From Squalus acanthias (Eukaryota), in the NCBI GenBank assembly GCA_030390025.1, contig CM059427.1, forward strand, positions 188,108,001-188,172,000: DNA of 64,000 nt, read 5' to 3'. Below the pieces are notes generated by a model. That model did no database searches and was not told the origin of the DNA. It saw nothing but the letters and a program-made list of their open reading frames with translations. The translations under genes and the position numbers were made by a program. This document shows, piece by piece, positions 1 through 63,289 of the stretch (position 1 is its first letter; the number at the start of each line of letters is the position of its first letter).

Positions 1-760
1 CTGGGGGTTCCCTGTACGATGGGTTTCAGAATGCCCTCGACGTATCCAGAGAGGTTCTCACACAGGGTTCCATTGCCTGATACGATAGGACGTCTGAGAC
101 AACGTATGAACGAGCACCGCGCAACAATCGCCAGGCAGGATTGTTACCTCCCAGTCGGGGAACACTTCAGCAGTCAAGGACATTCAGCCTCGGATCTGCG
201 GGTAAGCGTTCTCCAAGGCAACCTTAGAAACACACGACAACGCAAAATCATCGAGCAGAAACTGATAGCCAAGTTGCGCACTCATGAAGACGGTCTCAAT
301 CGGGATCTTGGGTTTATGTCACGATACATGACGTGATCCGGACTCGAGTCGTCGTTAGCTTGTTCACAGATGTGATTCCCAGTAAAAAAAGTAAAAATTT
401 TCCCAGTAAAAAAGTAAAAAAATGTTAAAGCTTTTCGTTTTACATACAGACGGCAGCTTTTGACACGTTAGAACCCCTGCGACTACACCTCATTGTCTCA
501 GTTGTATCTTGCTATGTCTTTGATGTGGTACCTTCCTGGCTGACTTAATTAACTTTATCACACCTCGGCAGATAGTCAGGATGATTTAATTTATTGGTCT
601 GCAATTGTAAAGTACACATTCTTTGTTTTCCATCTATATATGCTTTGGAGATTCTGTATCTAATTTACTTCACCTGAGGAAGGAGCAAATCGATAGCTCC
701 GAAAGCTTGTGATTTCAAATAAAACTGTTGGACTATAACCTGGTGTTGTGCGACCTCTCA
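1..760 (+). mobile_element. Penelope-like element 3' part (GIY-YIG end plus pseudo-LTR) with an inverted RT fragment at 1-93
   Basis: ORF 19-336 ends LRQRMNEHR..PVGEHFS..HSASDLRVSVLQ..EQKLIAKLRTHEDGLNRDLGFMS (PLE GIY-YIG C-terminus). 1-93 reads RPIVSGNGTLCENLSGYVEGILKPIVQGTP on the minus strand. Tail ctgttggactataacctggtgttgtgcgac is shared with 10790 and 44115. Confidence 0.9.
670..712 (+). ncRNA. Minimal type I hammerhead ribozyme motif in Penelope pLTR
   Basis: tcac-CTGAGGA-a-ggagc(aaatcgata)gctcc-GAAA-gctt-gtga: core boxes, 5-bp stem II, stem I tcac/gtga, palindromic stem III. Confidence 0.75.
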
Positions 761-1200
761 ATTCTATGAGATAGCCAGTTACTTATCCAATCGGCCAAAT
801 TTCCCTCTATCCCACAACTCCTTACTTTCTTCATGAGCCGACCATGGGGAACCTTATCAAACGCCTTACTAAAATCCATGTATACGACATCAACTGCTCT
901 ACCTTCATCTACACACTTAGTTACCTCCTCAAAGAATTCAATCAAATTTGTTAGGCAAGACTTACCCTTCACGAATCCGTGTTGACTATCCCTGATTAAG
1001 TTGCCCCTTTCCAAATGGTCATAAATCCTATCCCTCAGGACCTTTTCCATTATCTTACCAACCACCGAAGTAAGACTAACCGGCCTATAATTACCAGGGT
1101 CATTCCTATTTCCTTTCTTGAAGAGAGGAACAACATTCGCCACTCTCCAGTCCTCTGGCACCATTCCCGTGGACAGTGAGGACCCAAAGATCAAAGCCAG
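761..1200 (-). mobile_element. CR1 LINE reverse-transcriptase fragment
   Basis: ORF 733-1296: VPEDWRVANVVPLFKKG..NYRPVSLTSVVGK..SQHGFVKGKSCLTNL..YMDFSKAFDKVPH. Confidence 0.95.
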
Positions 1201-1212
1201 ACCCATTGTCAG

Positions 1213-1492
1213 GCAGATATAGATGGAATACATCATTCGAGGTACAATTATGGGGAAGGAGAGAGATGCCCTGACCTGCTCTGTCTCTGATGTCACTGAA
1301 TCAATGACATTTGTTTGGATCAGAAACTAAAGCAACATTGTTGAAGAGAAATCGTTCAATGGATGGAATTGGGAAGGGAAATCATTGAGACTGATTATTC
1401 AGAAAGCTGACAGAGACAGAGGGAACTGGATATGTGTTTTGTTTTATCAAAACAGCCCCAGGTTTTACCCCTGTACTATCTGGAGCCCAGTG
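1213..1492 (+). pseudogene. Disrupted C2-type Ig-domain exon with WxC motif (IgSF receptor copy A)
   Basis: From 1271: LTCSVSDVTESMTFVWIRN*SNIVEEKSFNGWNWEGKSLRLIIQKADRDRGNWICVLFYQNSP. B-strand Cys, C-strand Trp and F-strand W-I-C are present. In-frame TAA at 1328-1330. The expected donor reads agtg/ctaagt instead of gtaagt. The 5' boundary is uncertain. Confidence 0.8.
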
Positions 1493-3166
1493 CTAAGTGA
1501 CTCCGCGTTTGCGCTCAACAGAAAATTCTTGTCACTAATTGTTCTTTTTACCAGAGATGACCCCTCATCCTTTGTGTCCTATTTCTCTCCACTATTGCTC
1601 ACAGCCTCCACATTCATAATTATTCACACCACAGTTTGAAACCACAAGAAATGCCACACAGTGGCTCAGACACATTGGGGGTAATTTTGACTTCGGGCGA
1701 TAGAGTCAAACGAGCGATATCGGATCAGCCGCCCGTTATACATCGCTCCTGATTTTCAGTTCCATTGATTTCAAAGTCAAAATTGTATCGGAAGGTTGGA
1801 AGGAGTGTGCAGTTTCAGATATGGAGGCTGAAGGCATGTGGCCTGATCAGAGAGTAAGGAGAGGGAAGAGTATGGTTCCTGTCTCGCCGCCCATGATTTT
1901 CTGATCAGCACGGGCTGTGTGTGAGGTTCTATCACTGGTGCAGAGCCTCAGAAAATCTACCCTCAGATAACTCAGCACAGCCTGGGATCGAGTTTGGTAC
2001 CTTCCCGGTCCGTATGTCTCAGATACGCATTGAGACAAGGCAAGCATTTATTTTTGAGAGCAAAATGGTACAGAAGCCATTTCCGTTGGTTTTCTGACCC
2101 AAAATCAATCCGAATCTTTAGGCAGAATGTTAAAAAAAAAATCACAGCAAAAAGCAATTCGCAGCTGCAAAAATTGCAATTGAATGTCTCCAAACTTCAG
2201 GCTCAGAGAAACTCTTCTTCTCTGCCTGTCTCAGCTGATCCTGGAAACATCGGAGCCTCATCACTCTCATTCTAACTGAGGGCTCGTGCACTGTGAGCAC
2301 AAGAGCAGGAAACTTGAGGCTCTGGGCGGCCTCCTGAAACAGGCTTTAGGTGTCTTGCACATGTAATTCTGGGTCCTATTGCCAACTGGAGGACCCCGAT
2401 TGAAATTGGTGGACAGATGGGCGGAGTTTATGCCGGGCCAGCTCCAGCTCACTGTACCAGGTTTTGAGTGGATGAACCACTGGTGTTTAACAGGACCATT
2501 GGAGGCCACTCAAGAAATGGCCGGAAAATCTTTTAACAGTTACATTTCTGTGGAGCCAGGGGGAGATGGAGTGCTTCTCCTGGCTCCACAATAATACTGC
2601 GGCCTGGGTTCGACCTCCACACAAGCCCACGGGTTTGGCTCCCCAAAGGACCTACCTGTGGGCTGGTTCAGCATCGAAGCTGGCTGGAATTCATCAGGCC
2701 CCCACTGGGACACAACGATTGGCATCTGCGTATCGTCTGTTTCATTCTAATGAGGGCTGATGGTGAATTTCATCTGGCCCCAGGCCGGCAGGGACCGGCG
2801 CTCAAAGCAATCACTTCGCCAACTCGATGCCCATTTTGGGACAAAGTTCAATTTCTCAGACTTGGAACCTGCAGATTTAAAAGCAGAGGAATGAAAGGGG
2901 ACCTTAAAGAGCTTTATAAGATAATGAATGGAACAGAAAATATTGGTCTGGAGGAAAATCTCTGGACTGGTATAAGAGGCAGTTGGAGACTGTGATGATG
3001 AGACTGTAAGATTACATCGAAGGATTAGCTGGAGGAACCGACTATCTTCCCTCATCCCTTGTCTTTATTTATCCTCATAATAATAAGGTTGAGTCCATGA
3101 GGGTGCTGCCAGAAAATGAAAAGTGAAGGTGTAGTGTTAGGAGATTTAAATCAGTCAGGAAATAAT

Positions 3167-6399: not shown

Positions 6400-6503
6400 T
6401 GAGACCACTTCCGGAGATTTGGATCATCACAGTTTCGGGCTACTTGTTGGTTATTCTGGGCGTTGCTGTTGGACTAATTTGCTGCTTGAAGAGGATGACC
6501 AGA
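6400..6503 (+). CDS. Transmembrane exon of IgSF receptor copy A
   Basis: Acceptor ttgtccttcacAG, phase 1; encodes RPLPEIWIITVSGYLLVILGVAVGLICCLKRMTR; donor GTAAGA at 6504, phase 0. Confidence 0.85.
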
Positions 6504-7516
6504 GTAAGAATTTCTTTATCTTTCCAGTAAATCAGGAATTAGTGCCGAGCTGTCACTTGACACTGAGAAAACTGATGTTCGTTGAACAGATATTATGTGG
6601 TCACAAACTGTATTTTAAAATTTCATTTAAATATTGTACATTGTATTGAATTTAAAGGAATCATCAGTTAAAGGAAGCAATTGTTCCAAATTGTGTGAAT
6701 TCTTATAGCTTTGAATATTTTTCCTGATTCAAACGGCAATAACTTCCCTGCTCCCACTTTCCATCAGGCTCTGAGGAAGGAATCAGGGAGATCTCGGAGG
6801 GCCATACCTGATTATTAATGAATGGACAATGCTCAAACTAGGAGCCCAAACTTTTAATATGTTTCACTGATTATCACAAATATTCCTCTTGGAAATTAAG
6901 AACTTGATTGTCATCAGAAACCAATAATATGTGAACAGATGTTTGAAAATGAACAACCAGTAAAAATTGCAATAAACTGAACAGTAAGACTGTATTTAGT
7001 GAAAATTAATGATTATGAGAAACTTTACATCAGATCACAGCTCTGGGAGGTAACAAAAGAGACAGAATCAGTAGCTTTAGTAGGAGAGCATTGTTCTGTC
7101 AGAAGCAGAGTTGTAAGTTCAAGGAGGTAACTTTACTGGTGAGGTCAGTCAACCACAGGGAGAACCTCTCAGAAATGTGGTCACACTATGGCCATGAACT
7201 TTGACCTCAATGGTGTGACCTTATTTTACATTCATACATTCATAGTAGGAAAAATCTTCCACAATATCTGCTATCAGTAACTGGAGTTAGTTTATCATTT
7301 TAATCAGGTCTGTTCCTTCCAAATACTGAAGTTTATAATTGTTGAAATTATCTCATTAACACTGAGCCAGTGATGTGTGGGTCATGGTCTGTTCTGTTGC
7401 CCATTCTGTAAAATTACTCCTCTATTCGACTTCCTCTTTATCCATCACTTCCAGTCCAGTGTTTATTATTGAAGGATAAGCTCTTTATTTAAAGCACATT
7501 TCTTGCCTCTTGTCAG

Positions 7517-7624
7517 ATATCGAACAGCGGGAATCCACCCGAGCCGACAGAAAATAAAACGGATGATTCAGAAGAAGCCGTCGCATTACAGACCCTGAAC
7601 TCTGATACTGATCTGAGATCATAG
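7517..7624 (+). CDS. Cytoplasmic (last coding) exon of IgSF receptor copy A
   Basis: Acceptor tcttgcctcttgtcAG; phase 0 matches the TM exon; ISNSGNPPEPTENKTDDSEEAVALQTLNSDTDLRS*. Candidate poly(A) signal AATAAA at 8296. Confidence 0.65.
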   Translation: MSNSGNPPEPTENKTDDSEEAVALQTLNSDTDLRS

Positions 7625-9955: not shown

Positions 9956-10552
9956 TGTACCTGATAAACCCCTTCGAATCCAGCACAGCTCCAGTTCTGG
10001 ACATGATAAACCCCTTCGAATCCAGCACAGCTGCAGTTCTGGACAGGATAAACCCCTTCGAATCCAGCACAGCTCCAGTTCTGGACATGATAAACCTCTT
10101 CGAATCCAGCACAGCTCCAGTCCTGTACATGATAAACCCCTTCGAATCCAGCACAGCTCCAGTTCTGGACATGATAAACCCCTTCGAATCCAGCACAGCT
10201 GCAGTTCTGGACAGGATAAACCCCTTCGAATCCAGCACAGCTCCAGTTCTGGACATGATAAACCTCTTCGAATCCAGCACAGCTCCAGTCCTGTACATGA
10301 TAAACCCCTTCGAATCCAGCACAGCTCCAGTTCTGGACATGATAAACCCCTTCGAATCCAGCACAGCTCCAGTTCTGGACATGATAAACCCCTTCGAATC
10401 CAGCACAGCTCCAGTTCTGTACATGATAAACCCCTTCGAATCCAGCACAGCTCCAGTCCTGGACATGATAAACCCCTTCGAATCCAGCACAGCTCCAGTT
10501 CTGGACATGATAAACCCCTTCGAATCCAGCACAGCTCCAGTTCTGGACATGA
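9956..10552. repeat. 42-bp tandem repeat, ~14 copies
   Basis: Unit atgataaaccccttcgaatccagcacagctccagttctggac, contiguous with no spacers. Confidence 0.97.
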
Positions 10553-12622: not shown

Positions 12623-15600
12623 GGGCTCAATTTTAATGGGGAAGGAGGGCTGGGTGCGGGAGGGCTCCGAGGTGGTCAGGAAACTCAGGAGAACATTTTC
12701 CCACAGGCCCTGCCAACTTTAGCAGCAGGGCCTGATTAGCATGGGAAGCCTCTGTTTCCCACTCTCAGACAGCCAGATGGAGAGCTTGGCTGGCTGCGGG
12801 CGGGTAGGCCTGCAGCACTAGGCCGCAGAGAGGAGGGAGGGAGGGATCAGGTGGGAGCCGGGGTCAGCCGGAGGAGGATCGGAGATGGGGGTGAGAGAGA
12901 ATCGGGGCCGGAGCATCGGGGGCGGGAGGAAAGGGAAGAATGGATCGGGGCCGGTCTCCTGAGATTGGGGATTCGGGAGGCGGGGGCGGTGGGGGAATGG
13001 ATGAATGAGTCAGGTCCGAACTACTGAGCATCGAGTAGTAGGGAGGGAAGACTGGATCAGGGCTGGAGCTTCGCGGGGGTGGGAGAGTAGATCAGGGCCG
13101 GAGGATCGGGGGATGGGACAGTATATTGAGGCCGGAGGATCGGGGGGGGGGGGGGCGGTGGGACAGTATATTGGGGCCAGTGGATCGGGGGTGGGACAGT
13201 ATATTGGGGTCGGAGGATCGGGGGATGGGACAGTATATTGGGGTCGGAGGATCGGGAGGTGGGACAGTATATTGAGGCCGGAGGATCGGGGGGTGGGACA
13301 GTATATTGGGTCGGAGGATCGGGGGATGGGACAGTATATTGGGGCCGGAGGATCGGGGGATGGGACAGTATATTGGGGCCAGAGGATCGGGGGATGGGAC
13401 AGTATATTGAGGCCGGAGGATCGGGGGATGGGACAGTATATTGAGGTCGGAGGATCGGGGGATGGGACAGTATATTGAGGCCGGAGGATCGGGGGTGGGA
13501 CAGTATATTGGGGTCGGGGGATCGGGGGATGGGACAGTATATTGGGGTCGGAGGATCGGGGGGTGGGACAGTATATTGGGGCCGGAGGATCGGGGGATGG
13601 GACAGTATATTGGGGTCGGAGGATCGGGGGGTGGGACAGTATATTGGGGCCGGAGGATTGGGGGATGGGACAGTATTTTGGGGTCGAGGATCGGGGGATG
13701 GGACAGTATATTGGGGCCGGAGGATCGGGGGATGGGACAGTATTTTGGGGTCGGAGGATCGGGGGATGGGACAGTATATTGGGGCCGGAGGATCGGGGGA
13801 TGGGACAGTATATTGGGGTCGGAGGATCGGGGGATGGGACAGTATTTTGGGGCCAGAGGATCGGGGGATGGGACAGTATATTGGGGCCAGACGATCGGGG
13901 GATGGGACAGTATATTGGGGTCGGAGGATCGGGGGATGGGACAGTATATTGGGGCCAGAGGATCGGGGGATGGGACAGTATATTGGGGTTGGAGGATCGG
14001 GGGATGGGACAGTATATTGGGGTCGGAGGATCGGGGGATGGGAGAGTATATTGGGGTCGGAGGATCGGGGGATGGGACAGTATATTGGGGTCGGAGGATC
14101 GGGGGATGGGACAGTATATTGGGGTTGGAGGATCGGGGGATGGGACAGTATATTCGGGTCGGAGGATCAGGGGATGGGACAGTATATTGGAGCCAGAGGA
14201 TCGGGGGATGGGACAGTATATTGGAGCCAGAGGATCGGGGGATGGGACAGCATATTGGGGTCGGAGGATCGGGGGATGGGACAGTATATTGGGGCCGGAG
14301 TATCGGGGGATGGGACAGTATATTGGGGTCGGAGGCTCGGGGGATGGGACAGTATATTGGAGCCAGAGGATCGGGGGATGGGACAGTATATTGGGGCCAG
14401 AGGATCGGGGGTTGGGACAGTATATTGGGGTCGGAGGATCGGGGGATGGGACAGTATATTGGAGCCAGAGGATCGGGGGATGGGACAGCATATTAGGGTC
14501 GGAGGATCGAGGAAGGGACAGTATATTGGAGCCAGAGGATCGGGGGATGGGACAGCATATTGGGGTCGGAGGATCGGGGGATGGGACAGTATATTGGAGC
14601 CAGAGGATCGGGGGATGGGACAGCATATTAGGGTCGGAGGATCGAGGAAGGGACAGTATATTGGAGCCAGAGGATCGGGGGATGGGACAGCATATTGGGG
14701 TCGGAGGATCGGGGGATGGGACAGTATATTGGGGCCGGAGGATCGGGGGATGGGACAGTATATTGGGGTCGGAGGCTCGGGGGATGGGACAGTATATTGG
14801 AGCCAGAGGATCGGGGGATGGGACAGTATATTGGGGCCAGAGGATCGGGGGTTGGGACAGTATATTGGGGTCGGAGGATCGGGGGATGGGACAGTATATT
14901 GGGGTCGGAGGATCGGGGGATGGGACAGTATATTGGGGTCGGAGGATCGGGGGATGGGACAGTATATTGGGGTCGGAGGATCGGGGGATGGGACAGTATA
15001 TTGGGGCCGGAGGATCGGGGGATGGGACAGTATATTGGGGCCGGAGGATCGGTGGGGTGGGACAGTATATTGGGGCCGGAGGATCGGGGGATGGGACAGT
15101 ATATTGGGATCGGAGGATCGGGGGATGGGACAGTATATTGGGGCCGGAGGATCGGGGGGTGGGACAGTATATTGGGGCCAGAGGATCGGGGGGTGGGACA
15201 GTATTTTGGGGTCGGAGGATCGGGGGATGGGACAGTATATTGGGGCCGGAGGATCGGAGGATGGGACAGTATATTGGGGTCGGAGGATCGGGGGATGGGA
15301 CAGTATATTGGGGTCGGAGGATCGGGGGATGGGACAGTATATTGGGGTCGGAGGATCGGGGGATGGGACAGTATATTGGGGTCGGAGGATCAGGGGATGG
15401 GACAGAATATTGGGGCCAGAGGATCGGGGGATGGGACAGTATATTGAGGCCAGAGGATCGGGGGATGGGACAGTATATTGGGGTCGGCGGATCGGGGGAT
15501 GGGACAGTATATTGGGGTCGGAGGATCGGGGGATGGGACAGTATATTGGGGCCGGAGGATCGGGGGATGGGACAGTATATTGGGGTCGGAGGATCGGGGG

Positions 15601-18347
15601 ATGGGACAGTATATTGGGCCCGGAGGATCGGGGGATGGGACAGTATATTGGGGCCAGACGATCGGGGGATGGGACAGTATATTGGGGTCGGAGGATCGGG
15701 GGATGGGACAGTATATTGGGGCCAGAGGATCGGGGGATGGGACAGTATATTGGGGTTGGAGGATCGGGGGATGGGAGAGTATATTGGGGTCGGAGGATCG
15801 GGGGATGGGACAGTATATTGGGGTCGGAGGATCGGGGGATGGGACAGTATATTGGGGCCGGAGGATCGGGGGATGGGACAGTATATTCGGGTCGGAGGAT
15901 CAGGGGATGGGACAGTATATTGGAGCCAGAGGATCGGGGGATGGGACAGTATATTGGAGCCAGAGGATCGGGGGATGGGACAGCATATTGGGGTCGGAGG
16001 ATCGGGGGATGGGACAGTATATTGGGGCCGGAGTATCGGGGGATGGGACAGTATATTGGGGTCGGAGGCTCGGGGGATGGGACAGTATATTGGAGCCAGA
16101 GGATCGGGGGATGGGACAGTATATTGGGGCCAGAGGATCGGGGGTTGGGACAGTATATTGGGGTCGGAGGATCGGGGGATGGGACAGTATATTGGAGCCA
16201 GAGGATCGGGGGATGGGACAGCATATTGGGGTCGGAGGATCGAGGAAGGGACAGTATATTGGAGCCAGAGGATCGGGGGATGGGACAGCATATTGGGGTC
16301 GGAGGATCGGGGGATGGGACAGTATATTGGGGCCGGAGTATCGGGGGATGGGACAGTATATTGGGGTCGGAGGCTCGGGGGATGGGACAGTATATTGGAG
16401 CCAGAGGATCGGGGGATGGGACAGTATATTGGGGCCAGAGGATCGGGGGTTGGGACAGTATATTGGGGTCGGAGGATCGGGGGATGGGACAGTATATTGG
16501 GGTCGGAGGATCGGGGGAATGGGACAGTATATTGGGGTCGGAGGATCGGGGGATGGGACAGTATATTGGGGTCGGAGGATCGGGGGGTGGGACAGTATAT
16601 TGGGGCCGGAGGATCGGGGGGTGGGACAGTATATTGGGGCCGGATGATCGGTTGGGGGGTGGGACAGTATATTGGGGCCGGAGGATTGGGGGATGGGACA
16701 GTATATTGGGGTCGGAGGATCGGGGGATGGGACAGTATATTGGGGCCGGAGGATCGGGGGGTGGGACAGTATATTGGGGCCAGAGGATCGGGGGGTGGGA
16801 CAGTATTTTGGGGTCGGAGGATCGGGGGATGGGACAGTATATTGGGGCCGGAGGATCGGAGGATGGGACAGTATATTGGGGTCGGAGGATCGGGGGATGG
16901 GACAGTATATTGGGGCCGGAGGATCGGGGGATGGGACAGTATATTGGAGTCGGAGGATCGGGGGATGGGACAGTATATTGGGGTCGGAGGATCGGGGGAT
17001 GGGACAGTATATTGGGGTCGGAGGATCGGGGGATGGGACAGTATATTGGGGCCGGAGGATCGGGGGATGGGACAGTATATTGGGGCCAGAGGATCGGGGG
17101 ATGGGACAGTATATTGGGGTCGGAGGATCAGGGGATGGGACAGTATATTGGGGTCGGAGGATCAGGGGATGGGACAGTATATTGGGGTTGGAGGATCGGG
17201 GGATGGTACAGTATATTGGGGTTGGAGGATCGGGGGATGGGACAGTATATTGGGGCCGGAGGATCGGAGGATGGGACAGTATATTGGGGTCGGAGGATCG
17301 GGGGATGGGACAGTATATTGGGGCCGGAGGATCGGGGGATGGGACAGTATATTGGAGTCGGAGGATCGGGGGATGGGACAGTATATTGGGGTCGGAGGAT
17401 CGGGGGATGGGACAGTATATTGGGGTCGGAGGATCGGGGGATGGGACAGTATATTGGGGTCGGAGGATCGGGGGATGGGACAGTATATTGGGGCCAGAGG
17501 ATCGGGGGATGGGACAGTATATTGGGGTCGGAGGATCAGGGGATGGGACAGTATATTGGGGTCGGAGGATCAGGGGATGGGACAGTATATTGGGGTTGGA
17601 GGATCGGGGGATGGTACAGTATATTGGGGTTGGAGGATCGGGGGATGGGACAGTATATTGGGGCCAGAGGATCGGGGGATGGGACAGTTTATTGGGGCCG
17701 GAGGATTGGGGGATGGGACAGTATATTGGGGCCGGAGGATCGGGGGATGGGACAGTATATTGGGGCCGGAGGATTGGGGGATGGGACAGTATATCGGGAC
17801 CGTATCATCGGAGAGGTGAGGGACGGAACCATCGGAGCCGGAGGATAGGGGCGGTGGGGGGCGAGGGGGTGAAGCATCGGGGTGGGTGGGGTGGGGGTGA
17901 GGGCAGGACTTCATCAGGGTCAGCCTGAGGATCATGATTGGGGTGGGTCGCAGTCTGGAAAGGCGATCGGAGGGCTTGTGAGGGGGGGTCTCTGATCACA
18001 GGGGGTGTGTTAGGCAGGGTCTCTGCATCCAGGAGTTTAGTGTAAAGACAATCCTTGCCTTGCTTTAGCTGCCGAGTTTTATGAAGTGTGCAAAACCCGA
18101 CCAGCTGCAGTAAAACACAAAATGGAGGTTAAAGAAGAGGCTTCCAGCCTCATTATAATATTTAAATAGACAGTCCGCCTTCTGGCAGTGGGTTGGCTGC
18201 CTGCCCCTGTCCCACCTGCTGCCCCACCTCCGTTAAAACCAGAAGTTGGATGGTTGGAGGCGGATTCATGCTGGGATTCCGATTTTTAACAATTTAAATA
18301 CCCCCGCGCCCCCCAACTCACCTGTTTGTATAGGTTAAAATTCCCCC
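12623..18347. mobile_element. MITE (family 3) hosting the 34-bp satellite
   Basis: Termini gggctcaattttaa / ttaaaattccccc. The right end matches, in reverse, the left end of 60485-61346 (gcctccaacc..cttctggttttaacggaggtggg). Confidence 0.7.
13095..17795. repeat. G-rich 34-bp minisatellite, ~138 copies
   Basis: Unit ggatcgggggatgggacagtatattggggtcgga; the 34-aa period in the ORFs equals three units. Confidence 0.98.
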
Positions 18348-22696: not shown

Positions 22697-24901
22697 TGTC
22701 TCAGCTCCTGCACTGCTGCAGGATGAGCAGACGTTTGGCGAGCCCTCACAGGCTCGGAAACCCAGAGGACACCCACCAAAGGTGTCGAAGCAGGAGCAGC
22801 ATGAAAGTGAGCAAGAGGCCTCCATTTCTGCTGAAGCCACAGGGGGAGCACCATGTAGGAGCACGCGTAAGAGAAAAATAAACACAATTAGTCACACGGG
22901 TAGGCACTTGGGGGATTGTTTCTGTTTATTGATGAAATGCCATCCCTGTGTGAATTTATTATAATGAGGTGATGGCAAACTGTTGGTGTGATGGCATCTG
23001 TTATTTCGGCTCAGGCAGCTCCATATTGCGGGCTCGGCGACACTTGCATGATCAGGTTGGTGGTCAGAGTAAAAGGAGGCCAGAGAGTCATGTCCATTGT
23101 CTAGCGTGTGTTAAGAAGGAGCCAAGCACATGTGCCACAATAGGCAACCTATGCAAATCTGGCCAGGATTAGTGCTTCCCTTGCATCATGTCCAGCAATG
23201 TGCTCGTGTGCTGCCGCTGCTGCTGGTGGATGCGCCACCGCTCGGCCCTCCTCCTCCTGCTCCTCATCCTCCTCCTCATCCTCCTCCTCCTCCTCATCCT
23301 CATCTGAGGAGGCTATGTACTGAGCCATTTGCTCATCAGGAAGCTGCAAGCCACGACGCTATGCGATGTTGTGCAGTGCACAGCAGACCACGACCACTCT
23401 AGAGACCCTGGCTGCTGAGTACTGCAGGGCTCCACCTGATCTGTCAAGGCGTCAGAATCGCATCTTCAGCAAGCCAATGGTTTGTTCGATGATGGATCTT
23501 GTCAAAATGTGGCTGGCGTTATAGCGCTCCTCAGCCTTGTTCGCTGGCCTCTGATCGGCGTCATTAGCCACTTCTTCAGGGGGTAGTTTTTGTCACCAAG
23601 GAGCAATCCATTAAGTTGGTTTGGCAGATTGAAGAGTGGATGAAGACTAGAGTTCCACAGGATGAACGAGTCAAGGCAACTACAATAGAACTTGGCACTA
23701 ACATGCAAAATCGCCTTCTTGTGGTTACACACCAGCTGTACATTGAGGGAATGGAAGCCCTTGCGGTTGACAAAGGTCGCTGGGTTGTGATGGGGTGCCT
23801 TAAGGGCCACATGTGTGCAGTCTATGACGCCCTGAACCATTGGCAAGGCTGTCATATTTATAAAAGCCAACTGAACGCACGATTACACTTGCTTAATCCC
23901 TTGAGAAGTGGATGTAATAGTGCGCCTTTGCGAAAAGGGCATTGGTAACCTGCGTGATGCAACTGTGGGTGACCGACTGGGAGATGCCGCTGATGTCTGC
24001 TGATGATCCCTGGAAGGAGCCTGAGGCAAAAAAGTTGAGTGTGGTGGTGACTTTGACAGCCTTCGGTAAGGGGTGTCCACCCGCTCCTCTGGGCTCCAGG
24101 TTTGGTTGCAGCAGTGCGCAGATGTCTCCGACAACCTCTCGCAAAACTCTCAGCCTCCTTTGGCACTGCTGCTCACTCATGTTGACGTAGCTCATCCTCT
24201 GTCAGTAAACCCTGAGAGGGGGTTATCTCCTGCGGCAAAGTGCTTCCATGCGCTGGCGCCTTCTGTCCTGTGCACCATCAGGTGGGTGAGCAGGAGGTTG
24301 GCACTCCTGCTGCTGTTGCTGCTGAGCTGCCTGGTTCTGCTGCTGCCGTAGCTGCTCCTCATCCGAATCTGAGGTTCATGATGAATGGAAATAAATGGTT
24401 CCCATGCTGCTGGCAGATACCTCCGCTGGGGAGAGGGTTTTCCAAGGAGGTCCCACAGTTGAGAGATAGAAGCTGCAGCACCTCCGACTTCGGTAGGCCT
24501 GCTAAAAGTGCTGAAAGACCTGTGTAACAAAAGTTCTGCCACCTGCAACTGATCCCTGTTGAAAGCTCCGATTTAATGGTGGAGCTGCAGCTCTGAGGAG
24601 GCCACCCACTAGTCAACTCGCCAGGATTAGCTGACGTGGTTCAGGAGGGCCGTGCAATACGCTGAAAATGTGGTAAAATAACCAAGGCCTGGCAAAATAG
24701 GATTATAGAGGCCCTTAACCACTATTTAAAGGTCTTAACTACCTCTCCCGACTGATGGAGGCGGGACCGAATCGCACCCACGAAACCCGACTCTGGCAAA
24801 ATTGTGCGGAGGCAGGCTCTGAACCCGCCCTCAATTTTTTATGATTTTCCCAACTGTCCCGCCTCCAATCCCGCCTCCTCGGGGCGGGGAAAATCTCCCC
24901 C
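22697..24901 (-). mobile_element. PIF/Harbinger DNA transposon remnant with a frameshifted HARBI1-like DDE transposase
   Basis: Minus-strand pieces CQRRLR..LNFFASGSFQ..DISGISQS (HTH), VQGVIDCTHV..NRKGFHSLNVQLVC..LLGDKNYPL, and an acidic C-terminal run. TIR-like end ggggaaaatctccccc at ~24901. Confidence 0.9.
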
Positions 24902-29489: not shown

Positions 29490-30022
29490 CTTTCCTGATC
29501 TAATAAGATCATTGAAACGTTTGCGGCACTGTACCCAGGCCCTCCTGACCACATCCCTGCTGGTGACCTCCTCTGCAATCTCTAACCAGGCTGTTTTGGT
29601 GTCCTGGGGAGGTCTCTTTCACCCATTGGTAGGGAAGAGGACCTTCCTGCGAGCTCTGACTCCCTCCATAATCATATGGAGAGAGGCATCGGAGAACCTG
29701 AGTGCGGCCCTCTGCCTCTTGTGCAGTCATTGTCAAAGTGTTTGCAGCTCTCCAATGCTATAGTGCACTGACAGCACTATGTTAGATTAACCTCAAATGT
29801 AATGTGGTCACGGCCCCTTTAAAGATCCCGGCTGAAAACACGTCATGAATGACGTCACCAGACCCGCACCATTTAATTGGTCCGGGTAACGCGCAGTGCG
29901 GGCTTAATAGGCCCTATTAACATGAAGTCATTTTGTGGAGCGGGATGGAGTCAGCAACGGGGTCGTGACCCATCATGGCCACCGCCCACGCCGGACCCGC
30001 CCAGGTAGGGAAAACTCTGGCC
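29490..30022 (-). mobile_element. Harbinger remnant encoding the Myb/SANT-like DNA-binding ORF
   Basis: A minus frame absent from the ORF track reads RFSDASLHMIMEGVRARRKVLFPTNG*KRPPQDTKTAWLEIAEEVTSRDVVRRAWVQCRKRFNDLIRSG. Terminus gggaaaactctggcc; homology to copy C (52878) resumes right after it. Confidence 0.85.
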
Positions 30023-30313
30023 TATGTGGCTGGTGGATAAGAGGTGCATTATTCATGGTCCATCGTATATTAGGATGAGTAACTTTTGTTACACTTCTCA
30101 CAGGAAGAGGTGGTGTACTTTACTGAAGAAGGTTATTGTACATTTTACAGTTCCAAATTAGAATGGGGAAATAATTTGGAAAGCTGTTTTACCACATTTT
30201 TTTTCTTCACAGTCTGAAGTGTTAAACATATTCAGGAAATGTGCCTCGGTTTTACTTCTGGTGGTTTTCTGGAGCTATATATATTTCTATATCTATTTGT
30301 ATATTTCTTACAG

Positions 30314-30423
30314 GCAAAGAGATGGAATCTGTGAAATGAGGCTATGATTTTGCTGCAGCAAAATGCCAGCTGGTTTGATGTTCAGTTTCTTTGTGTTTCT
30401 ACTTCCGTCTGTTTTCACACAAA
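30314..30423 (+). CDS. Signal-peptide exon, copy B (ATG at 30363); no Ig exons found downstream in its own copy
   Basis: ttcttacAG acceptor; MPAGLMFSFFVFLLPSVFTQ plus 1 nt; donor GTACGT. Confidence 0.75.
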
Positions 30424-30555
30424 GTACGTGCCTTTTTTCCACCAATCACAATCATATTTTTTTACTTCATCTTAGTGTTTAACGAATTCACACACCTAGT
30501 ATTCAACAAGTAAGTAAGGTCTTTATTTTCCTGTCCCTGCTCCTTTAAACAGGGT

Positions 30556-31313
30556 GGCCCGTATTTTCCGATCACAGGCCTCCCGCGGGCGGTGGACTGC
30601 AATCAGGAAAAATCTGCGCCCTTACCTGAAGGCTCCCGGGAGGCGCACAGTTCCGATGCTGGGCCTCTCCAAACTGCCGGTGCGCAGGGCCCACGTATCC
30701 CAGAGGCGCAGGTCGTTCGCAGCGTCCCTGGGATTACGTGGGCCATGGGGAGCCAATAAGAGAAGGGAATCTCCCTTCATACATTTGACAGGAAGACCTG
30801 TCAAATATATGAAAGGAGATCACCCCCAAAACATCGTAAAACTTGAAATAAATTTAGAAAAAAAAAATCACATTTTTAAAATGACTTGAAAGTACAATAA
30901 ATTAACTATTTTAAACAAAACTTTAAATTTTTCAAAAAAATAATTAAAGTTTTTAACTGGGATAAAAATAAACTTACCTTTTTTCAAAGTATTTTTAAAT
31001 GATAAATCAGTGGAAATTTTAAAAAAACTTTTTTCAACTCTTATCCTGGTAAAAGCCAGCCTTACACCTGCTTTTACCAGGCGCAAGAATTGTAAGGGTT
31101 TTCTGCGGGCGGAGGGTCGGCAGAAAGCGGAAATCTCCCCCCGCAGAGGCCCTGCTCCAGGGCAGCCAGAGGATCTGTCAAGAGCTTTCTTCACAGATCG
31201 GAAATGCCGGTTTCCCACGCATGTGTAGTGCATGCCTGAAACCGGCATTTCCGATGTCCCTACGGGTGAGTACACAGCGCGGACACACCCGTAGGGATCG
31301 GAATATCCGGCCC
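30556..31313. mobile_element. MITE family 1 (mirror copy at 36806-37563)
   Basis: Termini ggcccgtattttccgatc / gatcggaatatccggccc. Confidence 0.85.
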
Positions 31314-31667
31314 ACGTGATTTCACTTTTGAGATTCAAGCAATGGAATAAAATGAAAAATGTTCGTATACTTCTCATTGCTCTTCAACTCCATTTCCCGA
31401 TCCATCTATTAATCTTTCTATCTGTCTGTACATCGACTCTTGCATACAGCAAACGTCCATCACACAGCTCGATGTCACATTTCAAAGTGTCACACTCACT
31501 CTGTGGAGCACTCTCTGTATTCCACGATATTTCAGATTTCAAGAGCCTAACAGATTGAATGTGGTAAAGAATGGTTTCAAAATTAATAACAATATTAAAA
31601 TGTTAGTAAATGTTTATAAAATTAGGAATTATTGAGAACCCTTTGTTGCTCAAGCCTGTGCGACTTA

Positions 31668-32525
31668 TAAGAACATAAGAACATAAGACGTAGGAGCAGG
31701 AGTAGGTCATTTGGCCCCTCGAGTCTGCTCCGCCATTCAATAAGATCATGGCTGATCTGATCTTGGCCTCAACTCCACTTCCCTGCCCACTCCCATAACC
31801 CTTGACTCCCTTATCATTCAAAAATCTGTCTATCTCCTCCTTAAATATATTCAATGACCCAGCCTCCACAGCTCTCTGGGGAAGAGAATTCCAAAGATTC
31901 ACGACCCTCTGAGAGAAGAAATTCCTCCTCATTTCTGATTTAAAAGGGTGCCCACTTATTCTGAAATTATGCCCCCTAGTTCCAGATTCCCTCATGAGGG
32001 GAAACATCCTCTCTGCATCTACCCTGTCAAGCCCCTTCAGAATCTTATATGTTTCAATAAGATCCCCTCTCATTCTTCTAAACTCCAATGAGTATAGGCA
32101 CAACTTGCTCAACCTTTCTTCATAAGATAATCCCTTTATCTCCGGAATCTTCTCAGAACTGCCTCCAACGCAAGTATATCCTTCCTTAAATAAGGAGACC
32201 AAAACTGTACGCAGTACTCCAGGTGTGGTCTCACCAACGCCCTGTACAGTTGTAACAGGACTTCCCTACTTTTATACTCCATTCCCTTTGCAATAAAGGC
32301 CAACACTCCATTTGCCTTCCTAATTACTTGCTTTACCTGCATGCTAACTTTTTGTGATTCATGTACAAGGACCCCCAGATCCCTCTTTACCTCAGCATTT
32401 TGTAATCTCTCCCCATTTAAATAATAATTTGCTTTTTTATTTTTCCTACCAATGTGGAATCCGATAATCTCGCATTTTCCCAAATTAAACTCCATCTGCC
32501 AGATTTTTGCCCACTCACTTAGCCT
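31668..32525 (-). mobile_element. CR1 3' RT end and 3' UTR (mirror copy at ~35580-36445)
   Basis: LYRALVRPHLEYCVQFWSP..RRMRGDLIETYKIL..FFSQRVVNLWNSLP; (ataagaac)n tail. Confidence 0.95.
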
Positions 32526-33620
32526 ATCTTTTTTTTTATTCGCTTATGGGATCTGGGCGTCGCTGGCAAGGCCAGCATTTATTGCCCATCCCTAGTTGCC
32601 CTTGAGAAGGTGGTGGTGAGCCCCCTTCTTGAACCGCTGCAGTCCGTGTGGTGAAGGTACTCTCACAGTGCTGTTAGGTAGGGAGTTCCTGGACTTTGAC
32701 CCAGCGACGATGAAGGAACGGTGATATACTTCTAAGTCAGGGTGGTGTATGACTTGGAGGGGAACCTTTAGGTGCTGGTGTTCCCATGCGCCTGCTGCCT
32801 TTGTCCTTCTAGGTGGAAAAGGTCACGGGTTTGGGAGGTGCTGCCGAAGAAGCCTTTGTGGTTCTGCTTTTTAATTTAGCCCCTAGCTGCTCATACTCTC
32901 TCAGAAGAACCTTTTTCTTTGTCCTACCTATGTCGTTGTTACCTACATGGACCACGACAACTGGATCTTTCCCCTCCCACTCTAAGTTCCTCTCCAGCCC
33001 AGAGGAAATGTCTTTTACCCTGGCACCGGGCAGGCAACACAGCCTTCGGAACTCACGCTTTCGGCTGCAGAGAACAGTATCTATCCCCCTAAATATACTG
33101 TCCCCTACCACTACCACATTTCTCTTTGCTCCCTCCACTTGAAAGGCTCCCTGTACCATGGTGCTTTGGTCAGTTTGCTCATCATCGCTGCAGTCCCTGC
33201 TCTCGCCCACACAAAGATTAAAAACCTCATAACTGTTGTACAAGAGCAAGGGCTGAGGATGATGGTACACACTGCAGCCACGGTACGCCGGTGCTGGAGG
33301 GAGTGAATGTTTAAAGTGGTGGATGGGGTACCAAGCAAACGGGTTGCTTTGTCCTGGATGCTGTCGAGTTTCTTGAGTATTGTTGGAGCTGCACTCATCC
33401 AGGCAAGTGGAGAGTATTCCATCACACTCCTTACTTGTGCCTTGTAGATGATGAAAGGCTTTGGGAAGTCAGGAGGTGAGACACTCGCCGCAGAATACCT
33501 ATCCTCTGACCTGCTCTTGTTGCCACATTATTTATGTGGCTAGTCCAGTTAAGTTTCTGGTCAATGGTGACCCCCAGGATGTTGATGGTGGGGGATTCGG
33601 CGATGGTAATGCTGTTGAAT
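32526..33620 (-). mobile_element. L2/CR1-group LINE 3' fragment interrupted by a CR1 ORF1 esterase fragment (~32857-33255)
   Basis: MEYSPLAWMSAAPT..LDSIQDKA; the insert reads VVVVGDSIFRG..CCLPGARVKD..VHVGNND (SGNH/GDSL-like). Confidence 0.85.
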
Positions 33621-34397: not shown

Positions 34398-37300
34398 TGC
34401 CCCCCCCCCCACCCCTGAAGGGATAATTACAAGTCCTAGCCCTTTCGGACTATCCCAGATCAGGCCTATTCCCCAGACGTTTACTCTCAACTAAAGTTAG
34501 CGGTAGCCGGATCCCAAAAGACGCTTAATTGGGTCTAAAGGTCAGACTACCTCTCCCTAAAGGAAAGAAACAGTCTAAAGATGTTACCATCCTCCAGATA
34601 GTACTTTCAATAAGTTTAACTAGACTGTCTCACCTCCTGACTTCCCAAAGCCTTTCATCATCTACAAGGCACAAGTAAGGAGTGTGATGGAATACTCTCC
34701 ACTTGCCTGGATGAGTGCAGCTCCAACAATACTCAAGAAACTCGACAGCATCCAGGACAAAGCAACCCGTTTGCTTGGTACCCCATCCACCACTTTAAAC
34801 ATTCACTCCCTCCAGCACTGGCATACCGTGGCTGCAGTGTGTACCATCATCCTCAGCCCTTGCTCTTGTACAACAGTTATGAGGTTTTTAATCTTTGTGT
34901 GGGCGAGAGCAGGGACTGCAGCGATGATGAGCAAACTGACCACAGCACCATGGTACAGGGAGCCTTTCAAGTGGAGGGAGCAAAGAGAAATGTGGTAGTG
35001 GTAGGGGACAGTATATTTAGGGGGATAGATACTGTTCTCTGCAGCTGAAAGCGTGAGTTCCGAAGGCTGTGTTGCCTGCCCGGTGCCAGGGTAAAAGACA
35101 TTTCCTCTGGGCTGGAGAGGAACTTAGAGTGGGAGGGGAAAGATCCAGTTGTCGTGGTCCATGTAGGTAACAACGACATAGGTAGGACAAAGAAAAAGGT
35201 TCTTCTGAGAGAGTATGAGCAGCTAGGGGCTAAATTAAAAAGCAGAACCACAAAGGCTTCTTCGGCAGCACCTCCCAAACCCGTGACCTTTTCCACCTAG
35301 AAGGACAAAGGCAGCAGGCGCATGGGAACACCAGCACCTAAAGGTTCCCCTCCAAGTCATACACCACCCTGACTTAGAAGTATATCGCCGTTCCTTCATC
35401 GTCGCTGGGTCAAAATCCAGGAACTCCCTACCTAACAGCACTGTGGGAGTACCTTCACCACACGGACTGCAGCGGTTCAAGAAGGGGGCTCACCACCACC
35501 TTCTCAAGGGCAACTAGGGATGGGCAATAAATGCTGGCCTTGCCAGCGACGCCCAGATCCCATAAGCGAATAAAAAAAAAAGACAGGCTAAGTGAGTGGG
35601 CAAAAATCTGGCAGATGGAGTTTAATTTTGGAAAATGCGAGATTATCGGATTCCACATTGGTAGGAAAAATAAAAAAGCAAATTATTATTTAAATGGGGA
35701 GAGATTACAAAATGCTGAGGTACAGAGGGATCTGGGGGTCCTTGTACATGAATCACAAAAAGTTAGCATGCAGGTAAAGCAAGTAATTAGGAAGGCAAAT
35801 GGAGTGTTGGCCTTTATTGCAAAGGGAATGGAGTATAAAAGTAGGGAAGTCCTGTTACAACTGTACAGGGCGTTGGTGAGACCACACCTGGAGTACTGCG
35901 TACAGTTTTGGTCTCCTTATTTAAGGAAGGATATACTTGCATTGGAGGCAGTTCTGAGAAGATTCCGGAGATAAAGGGATTATCTTATGAAGAAAGGTTG
36001 AGCAATTTGGGCCTATACTCATTGGAGTTTAGAAGAATGAGAGGGGATCTTATTGAAACATATAAGATTCTGAAGGGGCTTGACAGGGTAGATGCAGAGA
36101 GGATGTTTCCCCTCATGAGGGAATCTGGAACTAGGGGGCATAATTTCAGAATAAGTGGGCACCCTTTTAAATCGGAAATGAGGAGGAATTTCTTTTCTCA
36201 GAGGGTCGTGAATCTTTGGAATTCTCTTCCCCAGAGAGCTGTGGAGGCTGGGTCATTGAATGTATTTAAGGTGGAGATAGACAGATTTTTGAATGATAAG
36301 GGAGTCAAGGGTTATGGGGAGCGGGCAGGGAAGTGGAGTTGAGGCCAAGATCAGATCAGCCATGATCTTACTGAATGGCGGAGCAGGCTCGAGGGGCCAA
36401 ATGACCTACTCCTGCTCCTACATCTTATGTTCTTATGTTCTTATAAGTCGCACAGGCTTGAACAACAAAGGGTTCTCAATAATTCCTAATTTTATAAACA
36501 TTTACTAACATTTTAATATTGTGATTACTTTTGAAACCATTCTGTACCACGTTCAATCTGTTAGGCTGTTGAAATCTGAAATATCGTGGAATTCAGAGAG
36601 TGTTCCACAGAGTGAGTGTGACACTTTGAAATGTGACATCGAGCTGTGTGAAGGACGTTTGCTGTATGCAAGACTAGATGTATAGACAGATAGAGAGATT
36701 AATAGATGGATCGGGAAATGGAGTTGAAGAGCAATGAGAAGTATACGAACATTTTTCATTTTATTAAGTTGTTCCATTGCTTGAATCTCAAAAGTGAAAT
36801 CACGTGGGCCGGATATTCCGATCCCTATGGGTGTGTACGCGCTGTGTACCCACCCGTAGGGACATCGGAAATGCCGGTTTCAGGCATGCACTACACATGC
36901 GCTGGAAACCGGCATTTCCGATTTGTGAAGAAAGCTCTTGACAGATCCTCCGGCTGCCCGGGAGAAGGGCCTCTGCGGGGGGAGATTTCCGCTTTCTGGC
37001 GACCCTCCGGCTGCAGAAAACTCTTACAATTTTTGCGCCTGGTAAGAGCAGGTGTAAGGCCTGCTTTTACCAGGATAAGAGTTGAAAAAAGTTTTCAAAA
37101 AAATTTCCACTGATTTATCATTTAAAAATACTTTGAAAAAAGGTAAGTTTATTTTTAGCCCCGTTAAAAACTTTAATTATTCTTTTGAAAAATTTAAAGT
37201 TTTGTTTAAAATAGTAAATTTATTGTACTTTCAAGTCATTTTAAAAATGTGATTTTTTTTTCTAAATTTATTTCAAGTTTTACTATGTTTTGGGGGTGAT

Positions 37301-37695
37301 CTCCATTCATATATTTGACAGGTCTTCCTGTCAAATGTATGAAGGGAGATTCCCTTCTCTTATTGGCTCCCCATGGCCCACGTGATCCCAGGGACGCTGC
37401 GAACTACCTGCGCCTCTGGGATATGTGGGCCCTGCACACCGGCAGTTTGGAGAGGCCCAGCATCGGAATTGTGCGCCTCCTGGGAGCCCTCAGGTAAGGG
37501 CACAGATTTTTCCTGATTGCAGTCCACCGCCCACGGGAGGCCTACGATCGGAAAATACGGGCCACCCTGTTTAAAGGAGCAGGGACATGAAAATAAAGAC
37601 CTTACTTACTTGTTGAATACTCGGTGTGTGAATTTGTTAAACACTAAGATGAAGTAAAAAAATATGATTGTGATTGGTGGAAAAAAGGCACTTAC

Positions 37696-37805
37696 TTTGT
37701 GTGAAAACAGACGGAAGTAGAAACACAAAGAAACTGAACATCAAACCAGCTGGCATTTTGCTGCAGAAAAATCATAGCCTCATTTCACAGATTCCGTCTC
37801 TCTGC
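37696..37805 (-). CDS. Inverted copy of the signal-peptide exon (ATG at 37756)
   Basis: Identical 61-nt coding part, intact AG acceptor and GTAAGT donor on the minus strand. Confidence 0.7.
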
Positions 37806-38473
37806 CTGTAAGAAATATACAAATAGATCTAGAAATATATATAGCTCCAGAAAACCAACAGAAGTAAAACTGAGGCACATTTCCTGAATATGTTTAACAC
37901 TTCAGACTGTGAAGAAAAGAAATGAGGTAAAACAGCTTTCCAAATTATTTCCTCATTCTAATTTGGAACTGTAAAATGTACAATAACCTTCTTCAGTAAA
38001 GTACGCCACCTCTTCCTGTGAGAAGTGTAATAAAAGTTACTCATCCTAATATACGATGGACCATGAATAATGCACCTCTTATCCACCAGCCACATAGGCC
38101 AGAGTTTTCCCTACCTGGGCGGGTCCGGTGTGGGCGGTGGCCATGGTGGGTCATGACCCCGTTGCTGACTCCATCCCGCTCCACAAAATGACTTCATGTT
38201 AATAGGGCCTATTAAGCCCGCACTGCGCGTTACCCGGACCAATTAAATGGTGCGGGTCTGGTGACGTCATTCATGACGTGTTTTCAGCCGGGATCTTTAA
38301 AGGGGCCGTGACCACATTACATTTGAGGTTAATCTAACATAGTGCTGTCAGTGCATTACAGCATTGGAGAGCTGCAAACACTTTGACAATGACTGCACAG
38401 AGGCAGAGGGCCACACTCAGGTTCTCCGATGCCTCTCTCCATATGCTTATGGAGGGAGTCAGAGCTCGCAGGA

Positions 38474-53182: not shown

Positions 53183-53291
53183 GCAAAGAGACGGAATCTG
53201 TGAAATGAGGCTATGATTTTCTGCAACAAAATGCCAGCTGGTTTGATGTTCAGTTTCTTTGTGTTTCTACTTCCGTCTGTTTTCACACAAA
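53183..53291 (+). CDS. Signal-peptide exon of IgSF receptor copy C (ATG at 53231)
   Basis: AG acceptor; MPAGLMFSFFVFLLPSVFTQ; phase-1 donor A/GTAAGT splices in frame to 59623. Confidence 0.85.
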
Positions 53292-59622: not shown

Positions 59623-59964
59623 GAAAACCAAATCATATTTATTTTTTGGATAAGCGAGATGACTTTCAATTAAACGGACCGGACAATCCTGGGAATGGCC
59701 CTGTTGTCTGGGAATGGAAACCACACTCAGGGCAAGAAATCCAGCGGCTGGTTACTTTTCCCAAAGGGAGTTCGAGCTGGTGGGACGCACAATGGAACTA
59801 TCACTTTAGAAATGACGACTTGTACCAGATGATAGAACAGGATCCTGGTACCATTAACCTGAGAATTAGAAAACCCACATTTAATTTTGCGGGATCGTTC
59901 ATCTTGACTCAAACACAGCCGAGTAATAAAATCCTGAAACAGTATGAAATATTTGGGATCAAAG
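59623..59964 (+). CDS. First Ig (V-like, cysteine-less) domain exon of IgSF receptor copy C
   Basis: tctttctaacAG ... AAAG/GTGAGT, phase 1-1, 342 bp open. KPNHIYF..FQLNGP..VVWEWKP..LVTF..INLRIRKPTFNFAGSFILT..YEIFGIK. Confidence 0.88.
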
Positions 59965-63019: not shown

Positions 63020-63289
63020 TTGAGTCGAGTCCACAGAGTGCTGTGGTGGGCAGTGACGTTACACTCAGCTGTACCATCTCCAAACTCTCAGATACAGTCA
63101 GTCTTCAATGGAAACAGAGAGACTCATCTCAGCAGAACAGGAGCAACACTGATCAGATCCGACTAAATAACACAGTCTATCTGATCGTCAAACATGTTGC
63201 AGTAGAGGATAAGAAGTTGTACGCGTGTGAAGTGCAGGAAAATGGATCCATTATTCTCACAGGAAAAGCAGATTTTTCTGTGGCCCAGG
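63020..63289 (+). CDS. Second Ig (C2-type) domain exon of IgSF receptor copy C
   Basis: ttttcacAG ... CAGG/GTAAGT, phase 1-1. VESSPQSAVVGSDVTLSCTIS..LQWKQ..YLIVKHVAVEDKKLYACEV. Confidence 0.93.

Follow-up and report, generated by a model that had tools for sequence, protein, structure and literature searches.

A dead exon of the D4 type lies within an intron. The remaining exons of its gene are open over 504 codons, and the gene is part of a cluster of some 3 Mb encoding unnamed surface receptors of V-C2-V-C2 layout. Taken as a whole, we hold it to be fairly probable that these receptors are likely relatives of CD4 and LAG-3, and that they form predicted pairs, some with ITIM tails and others with a lysine in the transmembrane (TM) segment. 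The flagged exon is junk in itself, and is of use as the marker of a probable recombination event. A literature search, with most subscription papers outside its coverage, retrieved no description of the family, and a CD4/LAG-3-related paired receptor family of this kind is likely undescribed. Part of it may have been noticed already, since Venkatesh 2014 reportedly found several CD4/LAG3-like molecules without CxC (according to the accessible parts of PMC6238376 and PMC6795676), and since a nurse shark member has been deposited as ‘obscurin-like’.

The dead exon

The window – the whole stretch of 64,000 nucleotides that was analysed – corresponds to C3:188108001-188172000, and the cluster spans C3:186.4-189.5 Mb. 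At the window's start the sequence-only reading had seen a C2-type exon with DRGNWICV as its F strand, a TAA stop and an altered splice donor. All three are found as described (Table 1): frame +2 of 1214-1492 encodes the motif, with the tryptophan codon at 1427-1429. A further lesion, the 1-nt deletion at 1455, had escaped that reading. An exon start at 1213 is rejected, as homology to D4 starts around 1255. The pattern D.G.W.C occurs a single time in the six frames of the 64-kb window, and it also turns up in 8 of 100 base-shuffled windows, so that the motif alone is weak evidence. The exon is judged real because it is homologous to intact D4 exons of neighbouring genes (about 81% nucleotide identity), not because of its motif. 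A Pfam search detected neither half of the broken exon, nor D1, nor the TM exon. The filler that takes the place of the D4 acceptor has an in-frame TAG at 1220-1222 and is the same in all ten copies of the dead exon found in the genome.

The same reading had a CR1 element abutting the 5′ side. An element with a reverse transcriptase is indeed present upstream, but it ends at 1197, about 57 nt ahead of the Ig part of the exon. It is carried by two of the ten copies, and must therefore have been inserted after the exon died; as killer of the exon it is rejected, eight dead copies being free of it.

Table 1. Features of the window (positions in the window)
Feature	Position	Strand	Basis or remark
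Retroelement insertion, 3′ end of a 4.3-kb composite that begins some 3,080 bases ahead of the window	1..1197		Junction from insertion-free paralogues
Reverse-transcriptase fragment within the retroelement	736-1197	-	RVT_1 E=7e-19
Non-Ig filler replacing D4 acceptor and first codons	1198..1254	+	Alignment to intact D4 starts at 1255
Dead D4-type C2 exon (pseudo-exon)	1255..1492	+	Alignment; groups inside the family D4 clade
In-frame TAA	1328..1330	+	Common to 10/10 copies
F strand DRGNWICV (WxC)	1415..1438	+	Sequence
1-nt deletion, frameshift of the last codons	1455..1455	+	Common to 10/10 copies
Dead splice donor, CT for GT	1493..1494	+	Common to 10/10 copies
TM exon, short-tailed (activating-type) class	6400..6503	+	
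Short cytoplasmic-tail exon with stop	7517..7624	+	No Tyr motif, no CxC/CxH
Orphan family leader exon, one arm of the 3.9-kb inverted duplication	30336..30423	+	
Orphan family leader exon, other arm of the inverted duplication	37696..37783	-	
Copy C leader exon, from second ATG	53231..53291	+	
Copy C D1 exon (V-like domain lacking the cysteine pair; C'-C''-D region variable)	59623..59964	+	
Copy C D2 exon, C2, YAC	63020..63289	+	

An open gene around it

To call this copy pseudogenised, as the sequence-only reading did, goes too far: it is the exon that is dead. The gene begins before the window, with a leader and four open Ig exons (at window positions -20424, -17107, -13880, -5061 and -3553), and continues with the TM and tail exons of Table 1. 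These seven remaining exons are open, have in-phase AG/GT ends and make a 504-aa frame without the dead exon, which requires D8 to be spliced at an AG lying 6 nt further downstream than the usual acceptor. D3 to D6 are missing, D2 being joined to a D7-type exon. The TM exon has isoleucine at 6453-6455, where the 17 close copies of this short class in the genome divide into 14 with Lys and 3 with Ile. Six divergent short-class TM exons (L139-L144) have glutamine there. With an activating-type tail and no lysine, the gene would be either a decoy or decaying; if expressed, its product, with Lys changed to Ile and no tyrosine motif, is predicted to be a non-signalling decoy.

Four of eight sequence runs were aligned (X1-X4), all of them contigs presumed to be RNA, and only their splice joints were used. 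A D8-to-TM joint that passes over the dead exon, with GT..AG ends, is present in contigs of runs X1 and X3, and a TM-to-tail joint (6503 to 7517, again GT..AG) in all four runs. The tail variants of the contigs match paralogues that bear the same scar, at C3:186.86, 187.57 and 189.41 Mb: spliced contigs of scar-bearing paralogues skip the dead exon. The D8 part of the X3 contig and its tail fit two different paralogues, so that the contig may be an assembly mosaic. One joint of X4 runs from the end of the dead exon to the TM exon; intact D4 paralogues aligning at 88% would explain it, use of the exon being the other possibility. As for the gene's own Ile codon, no spliced contig has it, positions 6454-6455 reading AA at all depth of X1-X3; missing cover of this allele among contigs that are presumed RNA is no evidence of silence.

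It might be, though we lean against it, that this particular gene is a decaying pseudogene, the dead exon, the retroelement insertions, the shifted D8 acceptor and the lost TM lysine representing as many stages. The missing Ile codon in the spliced contigs would fit, as would the changed acceptor and the loss of D3-D6; against this, the 504 codons of the seven remaining exons form an open, in-phase frame, and paralogues with the same scar do yield spliced contigs. The gene is probably live, and only the flagged exon dead.

A probable recombination scar

All ten copies of the dead exon are near-identical and have stop, deletion and dead donor in common, and each stands between a D8-type exon before it and a short-class TM exon after it. 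In a copy that lacks the insertion, D8 together with some 180 nt of intron agrees with ITIM-tailed genes at 92-93%; past the dead exon, intron and TM exon agree at 89-99% with a D4-TM(Lys) gene. In other sharks and rays, too, a D8-type end is joined to a Lys TM in annotated proteins (P0014, P0053, P0064 and P0096). We infer from these alignments that the dead exon marks the junction between a D7-D8 ectodomain of ITIM-gene type and a TM/tail module of the activating type. One old unequal crossover would have brought together the D7-D8 end of an ITIM-type gene and, from an activating gene, the D4-TM-tail end, breaking the D4 acceptor and leaving the scar inside an intron; the scar-bearing block would have multiplied afterwards. 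If so, one sees here how recombination made an activating receptor, ten genes having preserved the breakpoint. The copy at C3:188592869 lies 483 kb from that of the window and does not differ from it over dead exon, D8 and tail; either the duplication is very recent or the assembly contains the region twice.

The cluster and its surroundings

Nearly all D4 matches of the genome (66 of 68) fall within C3:186.44-189.51 Mb. Family exons also occur outside the cluster, at C26:26269291 and on C1512. Flanks of 200 kb were searched on each side (1,166 open frames ranked, the top 110 read, eight scanned). The cluster is bordered by a P4HA gene (P4HA2 108 bits, P4HA1 105) at C3:186.24-186.25 Mb and by an ARAP gene (ARAP3 98 bits) at C3:189.53-189.66 Mb. 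In human, P4HA2 and ARAP3 both lie on 5q31. Broken pol fragments of LTR-type retroelements (RT, RNase H, integrase zinc finger) are found at the cluster edges (L097:996-7236, minus strand; L104:378-2411, plus strand).

The window also holds the beginning of a second gene, copy C, which runs on beyond it: six further Ig exons follow, then a TM exon with Lys and a short tail. Copy C had been described as having D1 in one exon and YAC in D2, which is what we find. The gene, with eight domains, extends from window position 53231 to about 88,300 (C3:188161231-188196300); the last Ig exon is of the D4 type, and copy C is another domain mosaic. The window further contains an inverted duplication of 3.9 kb at 97% identity (29641-33486 and 34623-38477), tandem arrays (34 bp x 139 at 13074-17798, 42 bp x 14 at 9962-10552 and 40 bp x 8 at 41828-42160) and a DDE_Tnp_4 transposase fragment on the minus strand (23505-23882).

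Architecture, tails and distribution of the family

Members of the family have the V-C2-V-C2 unit once, twice or more. From 132 candidates, 101 are homologous to the D2 exon of copy C, all from sharks, rays and skates, the best at 87-90%, which places the host among the cartilaginous fishes. The tryptophan of the dead exon is no peculiarity of that copy: intact paralogues have it as well, with WxC in 141 of 143 D4-type domains of shark and ray proteins and in none of 149 D2-type domains, isoforms included. D2-type domains use YxC, and the F-strand cysteine is kept in 7 of 138 D1 domains (again counting isoforms).

Tails come in two main kinds. Among the 101 shark and ray proteins, many of them partial, 46 have two ITIM-like motifs, 8 have one, 18 have a TM lysine and 29 have neither. 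The genome contains 16 TM exons of the ITIM class, 15 of them in the cluster. ITIM-class forms and short-tailed forms with a charged TM coexist there with near-identical ectodomains. In paired receptors, ITIM tails recruit SHP phosphatases, and a lysine in mid-membrane pairs with adaptors of the DAP12 type. The same rules for ITIM and charged TM segments are given for DICP and NITR in the accessible part of bioRxiv 10.1101/2021.06.11.448072. The cluster is thus a predicted paired-receptor system, inhibitory (ITIM) versus activating (TM lysine): its ITIM forms are predicted to recruit SHP-1/2, and its Lys forms to pair with a DAP12-type adaptor.

The distal domain is the variable one. Amino-acid identity is 0.78 among five D1 exons and 0.93 among five D2 exons, and the variation of D1 peaks in C'-C''-D (pN 0.24, pS 0.18, a small sample of five exons). 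This variable, cysteine-free D1 is the likely ligand face, predicted to bind a changing ligand, most likely one derived from pathogens or a polymorphic one of the host itself.

Of 1.84 billion proteins searched with a profile, 957 matched; the best 150 of these were listed and 31 of them named. The named fish members are from chimaera, sevengill shark, sturgeon, bichir, bowfin, eels, tarpon, a mormyrid, cyprinids, loach, characin, catfish and denticle herring; coelacanth and two frogs complete the set. Every named family member is annotated as uncharacterized, hypothetical or under a generic name. Both this occurrence outside sharks and the pairing of ITIM with TM-lysine forms had escaped the sequence-only reading. 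The other named matches are five CD4/LAG-3 proteins, one lamprey protein with a close relative, and one unnamed; no amniote is among the 31 named in these best 150. The sturgeon (P0124) and bichir (P0130) proteins are single-type members, with tails that end in YxN (VENIYEN) and have neither ITIM nor TM lysine.

Kinship with CD4 and LAG-3

Several lines of evidence point to CD4 and LAG-3 as relatives. Profile searches of the PDB put LAG-3 on top (43 bits, against 39 for CEA, and in a second search 54 against 43 for a Fab). A predicted model of four domains (pLDDT 80.6) displays continuous V-to-C2 beta strands, at 123-138 and 328-344, a rare trait of CD4 and LAG-3 according to the accessible part of PMC10768021. 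Foldseek with the predicted structure ranks LAG-3 and CD4 first, and a structural search of 48,161 chains puts CD4 first and second (Z 14.3 and 13.3, the next being 12.9), the top match being CD4 D3-D4 with rmsd 2.6 over 170 aligned residues. Superposed on D3-D4 of rat CD4, the predicted D3-D4 gives Z 16.3, rmsd 2.4 over 171 residues. Sequence identity to CD4/LAG-3 in these structure comparisons is 11-27%.

The affinity does not depend on the tryptophan. With W masked, HHalign scores for family D3-D4 are 123 and 120 with LAG-3 units, 111 and 98 with CD4 units, and 120 with lamprey-type units. Two controls, which we label Siglec-like and HepaCAM-like, reach 58 and 31; for scale, LAG-3 against CD4 gives 132. 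In a tree of domains, family D4 – the window exon included – makes its own clade (95/92), as does family D3-D4 in a tree of V-C2 units (98/95). The phylogenetic check proposed earlier is answered in part: family D4 joins all seven CD4/LAG-3 D4 domains at 76/91, a weak deep node, but in the unit tree family D1-D2 groups with D3-D4 at 80/53, where deep nodes are weak and disagree with the D4 tree. A single clade of all WxC C2 domains has p-AU 0.35. WxC had been taken as characteristic of CD4 and LAG-3; it does occur in their D2 and D4, but it is shared with lamprey V-C2 proteins.

That WxC and the V-C2-V-C2 layout are convergent, and the family without special kinship to CD4/LAG-3, seems to us quite improbable. 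Such an origin would account for a WxC confined to D4, for the low identity noted above, for the lack of common neighbour genes in the flanks searched and for the unsettled deep nodes. It would leave aside that the affinity persists in profiles and trees with W masked, that the predicted D3-D4 superposes on that of CD4 as a rigid pair of domains, and that the model has the continuous V-to-C2 strands that PMC10768021, in its accessible part, makes a CD4 trait. The family is likely related to CD4/LAG-3. As the CD4/LAG-3 rows were mostly picked by the family profile, and outgroups and controls were few, the kinship rests on converging moderate evidence, short of a sister relation in the strict sense.

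Neither CD4 nor LAG-3

A family related to CD4/LAG-3, rather than CD4 itself, is what the sequence-only reading proposed, and the masked profiles, PDB searches and trees support it, as do the LAG-3- and CD4-like exons found elsewhere. We speak of a sister family because the genome has its own LAG-3 and CD4-like genes, on contig C3283. The LAG-3-like gene (C3283:182366-195913, minus strand) has four Ig exons, WxC in D2 and D4, and a D3 that is apparently interrupted; the CD4-like exons (C3283:83182-88413, plus strand) lie in opposite orientation, about 94 kb away. The idea that the cluster on C3 is the CD4 locus is therefore rejected. Matches to the USP5/13, COPS7 and TPI families are on C5, C2155 and C2106, and none is on C3 (small contigs being unplaced); those to MHC class II alpha are on other, unplaced contigs, away from the cluster. 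A PF05790 profile found nothing in the genome, nor in controls, and a query with coelacanth CD4, which returned five unrelated C2 exons, was discarded.

Two arguments advanced earlier against identity with CD4 or LAG-3 need revision. The single-exon D1 of copy C does not separate it from them, since a D1 intron is absent from CD4 and LAG-3 of sharks; and the tail of copy A does have neither CxC nor CxH, but shark CD4 itself uses CxH in place of CxC (both in the accessible part of PMC10768021). The sister-family conclusion is unaffected by the loss of the intron argument. Among the 101 tails, one matches C.[CH], in an aberrant isoform, and three match (F/Y)xxL(D/E), two of these juxtamembrane and one in an aberrant isoform. 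ITIM-class tails span several exons; that of the gene with the dead exon is one short exon.

Fish receptors as possible alternative relatives

The family might instead be closer to G6f-like/G6F, or to DICP, and work as paired receptors of thrombocytes or myeloid cells, its likeness to CD4 reflecting shared ancestry of V-C2 proteins with WxC. We regard this as unlikely, noting that G6f-like and DICP were compared by description only. The ESM Atlas does rank g6f-like clusters above CD4 (2-3 with the shark protein, 1-2 with the sturgeon protein), and teleost G6fL, as the accessible part of PMC3528668 describes it, has four Ig domains, YxN and an ITAM; VENIYEN in the tails of P0124 and P0130 matches, in a hand reading, the context of the Y499F primer there, which makes a link to G6f-like possible. 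Yet no ITAM-tailed four-Ig fish protein was seen in the best 150 of the 957 matches, against five CD4/LAG-3, and no cytoplasmic ITAM was found in the family tails examined by eye and motif scan, which have ITIM-like motifs or are short. A homolog search with a mixed alignment returned three proteins, none of them G6fL or DICP. For DICP, the accessible part of bioRxiv 10.1101/2021.06.11.448072 includes four-domain, ITIM and charged-TM forms in bowfin, which would favour the alternative; but it places these genes in the MHC and has their D1 keep C23/C104, mostly with extra cysteines. Family D1 is without these defining cysteines, and the cluster lies between P4HA and ARAP on a 209-Mb contig, with MHC class II alpha on other contigs. 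We keep CD4 and LAG-3 as the likely relatives.

Meaning, and comparison with known systems

The CD4/LAG-3 family is counted as two genes, with few relatives. A large and variable sister family of paired receptors, if true, would change how the origin of the CD4 scaffold is seen, and would make its members candidate innate or NK-type receptors of cartilaginous fish. A broader proposal, to be held tentatively, would make it a third CD4/LAG-3 branch of jawed-vertebrate age, present from sharks to frogs, a paired system like KIR/LILR, with dozens of genes on the CD4 scaffold, whose activating members would arise by grafting inhibitory ectodomains onto Lys tails; if it read MHC class II, it would be the class II counterpart of the missing-self receptors of NK cells.

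KIR, LILR, CD300 and NITR offer the general precedent, with ITIM against TM-charged forms, tail swapping by recombination, a variable distal domain and birth-and-death evolution. The family differs from them by its CD4-like ectodomain, and they are absent from the best matches. Lamprey V-C2 repeat proteins (P0146 from Lethenteron, and the similar P0135) and lamprey CD4-like proteins share V-C2(WxC) units, with a masked HHalign score equal to that of LAG-3; they form their own clade in both trees, with several WxC C2 domains per protein and a tyrosine-rich tail of another type. G6f-like, compared by description, shares four Ig domains, YxN and the top rank as ESM Atlas look-alike, and differs by its ITAM (PMC3528668, accessible part), none being noted in family tails. 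DICPs, as far as their source is accessible, likewise form clusters of Ig receptors in fish, where inhibitory, activating and ambiguous forms occur and some members have four domains; they differ in retaining both D1 cysteines and in locus. With respect to CD4 and LAG-3 themselves, the family stands apart by YxC in D2, by a D1 in which cysteines are mostly missing, by a domain number of four, eight or more, and by dozens of tandem genes at a different locus where these have one each; its tails have two ITIM-like motifs or a TM lysine in place of Cx(C/H) or (F/Y)xxL(D/E). What it shares with them is a type I membrane protein of V-C2-V-C2 layout, one exon per domain as in their shark forms, WxC in D4, the continuous V-C2 strand in its model, and the best matches in both sequence and structure.
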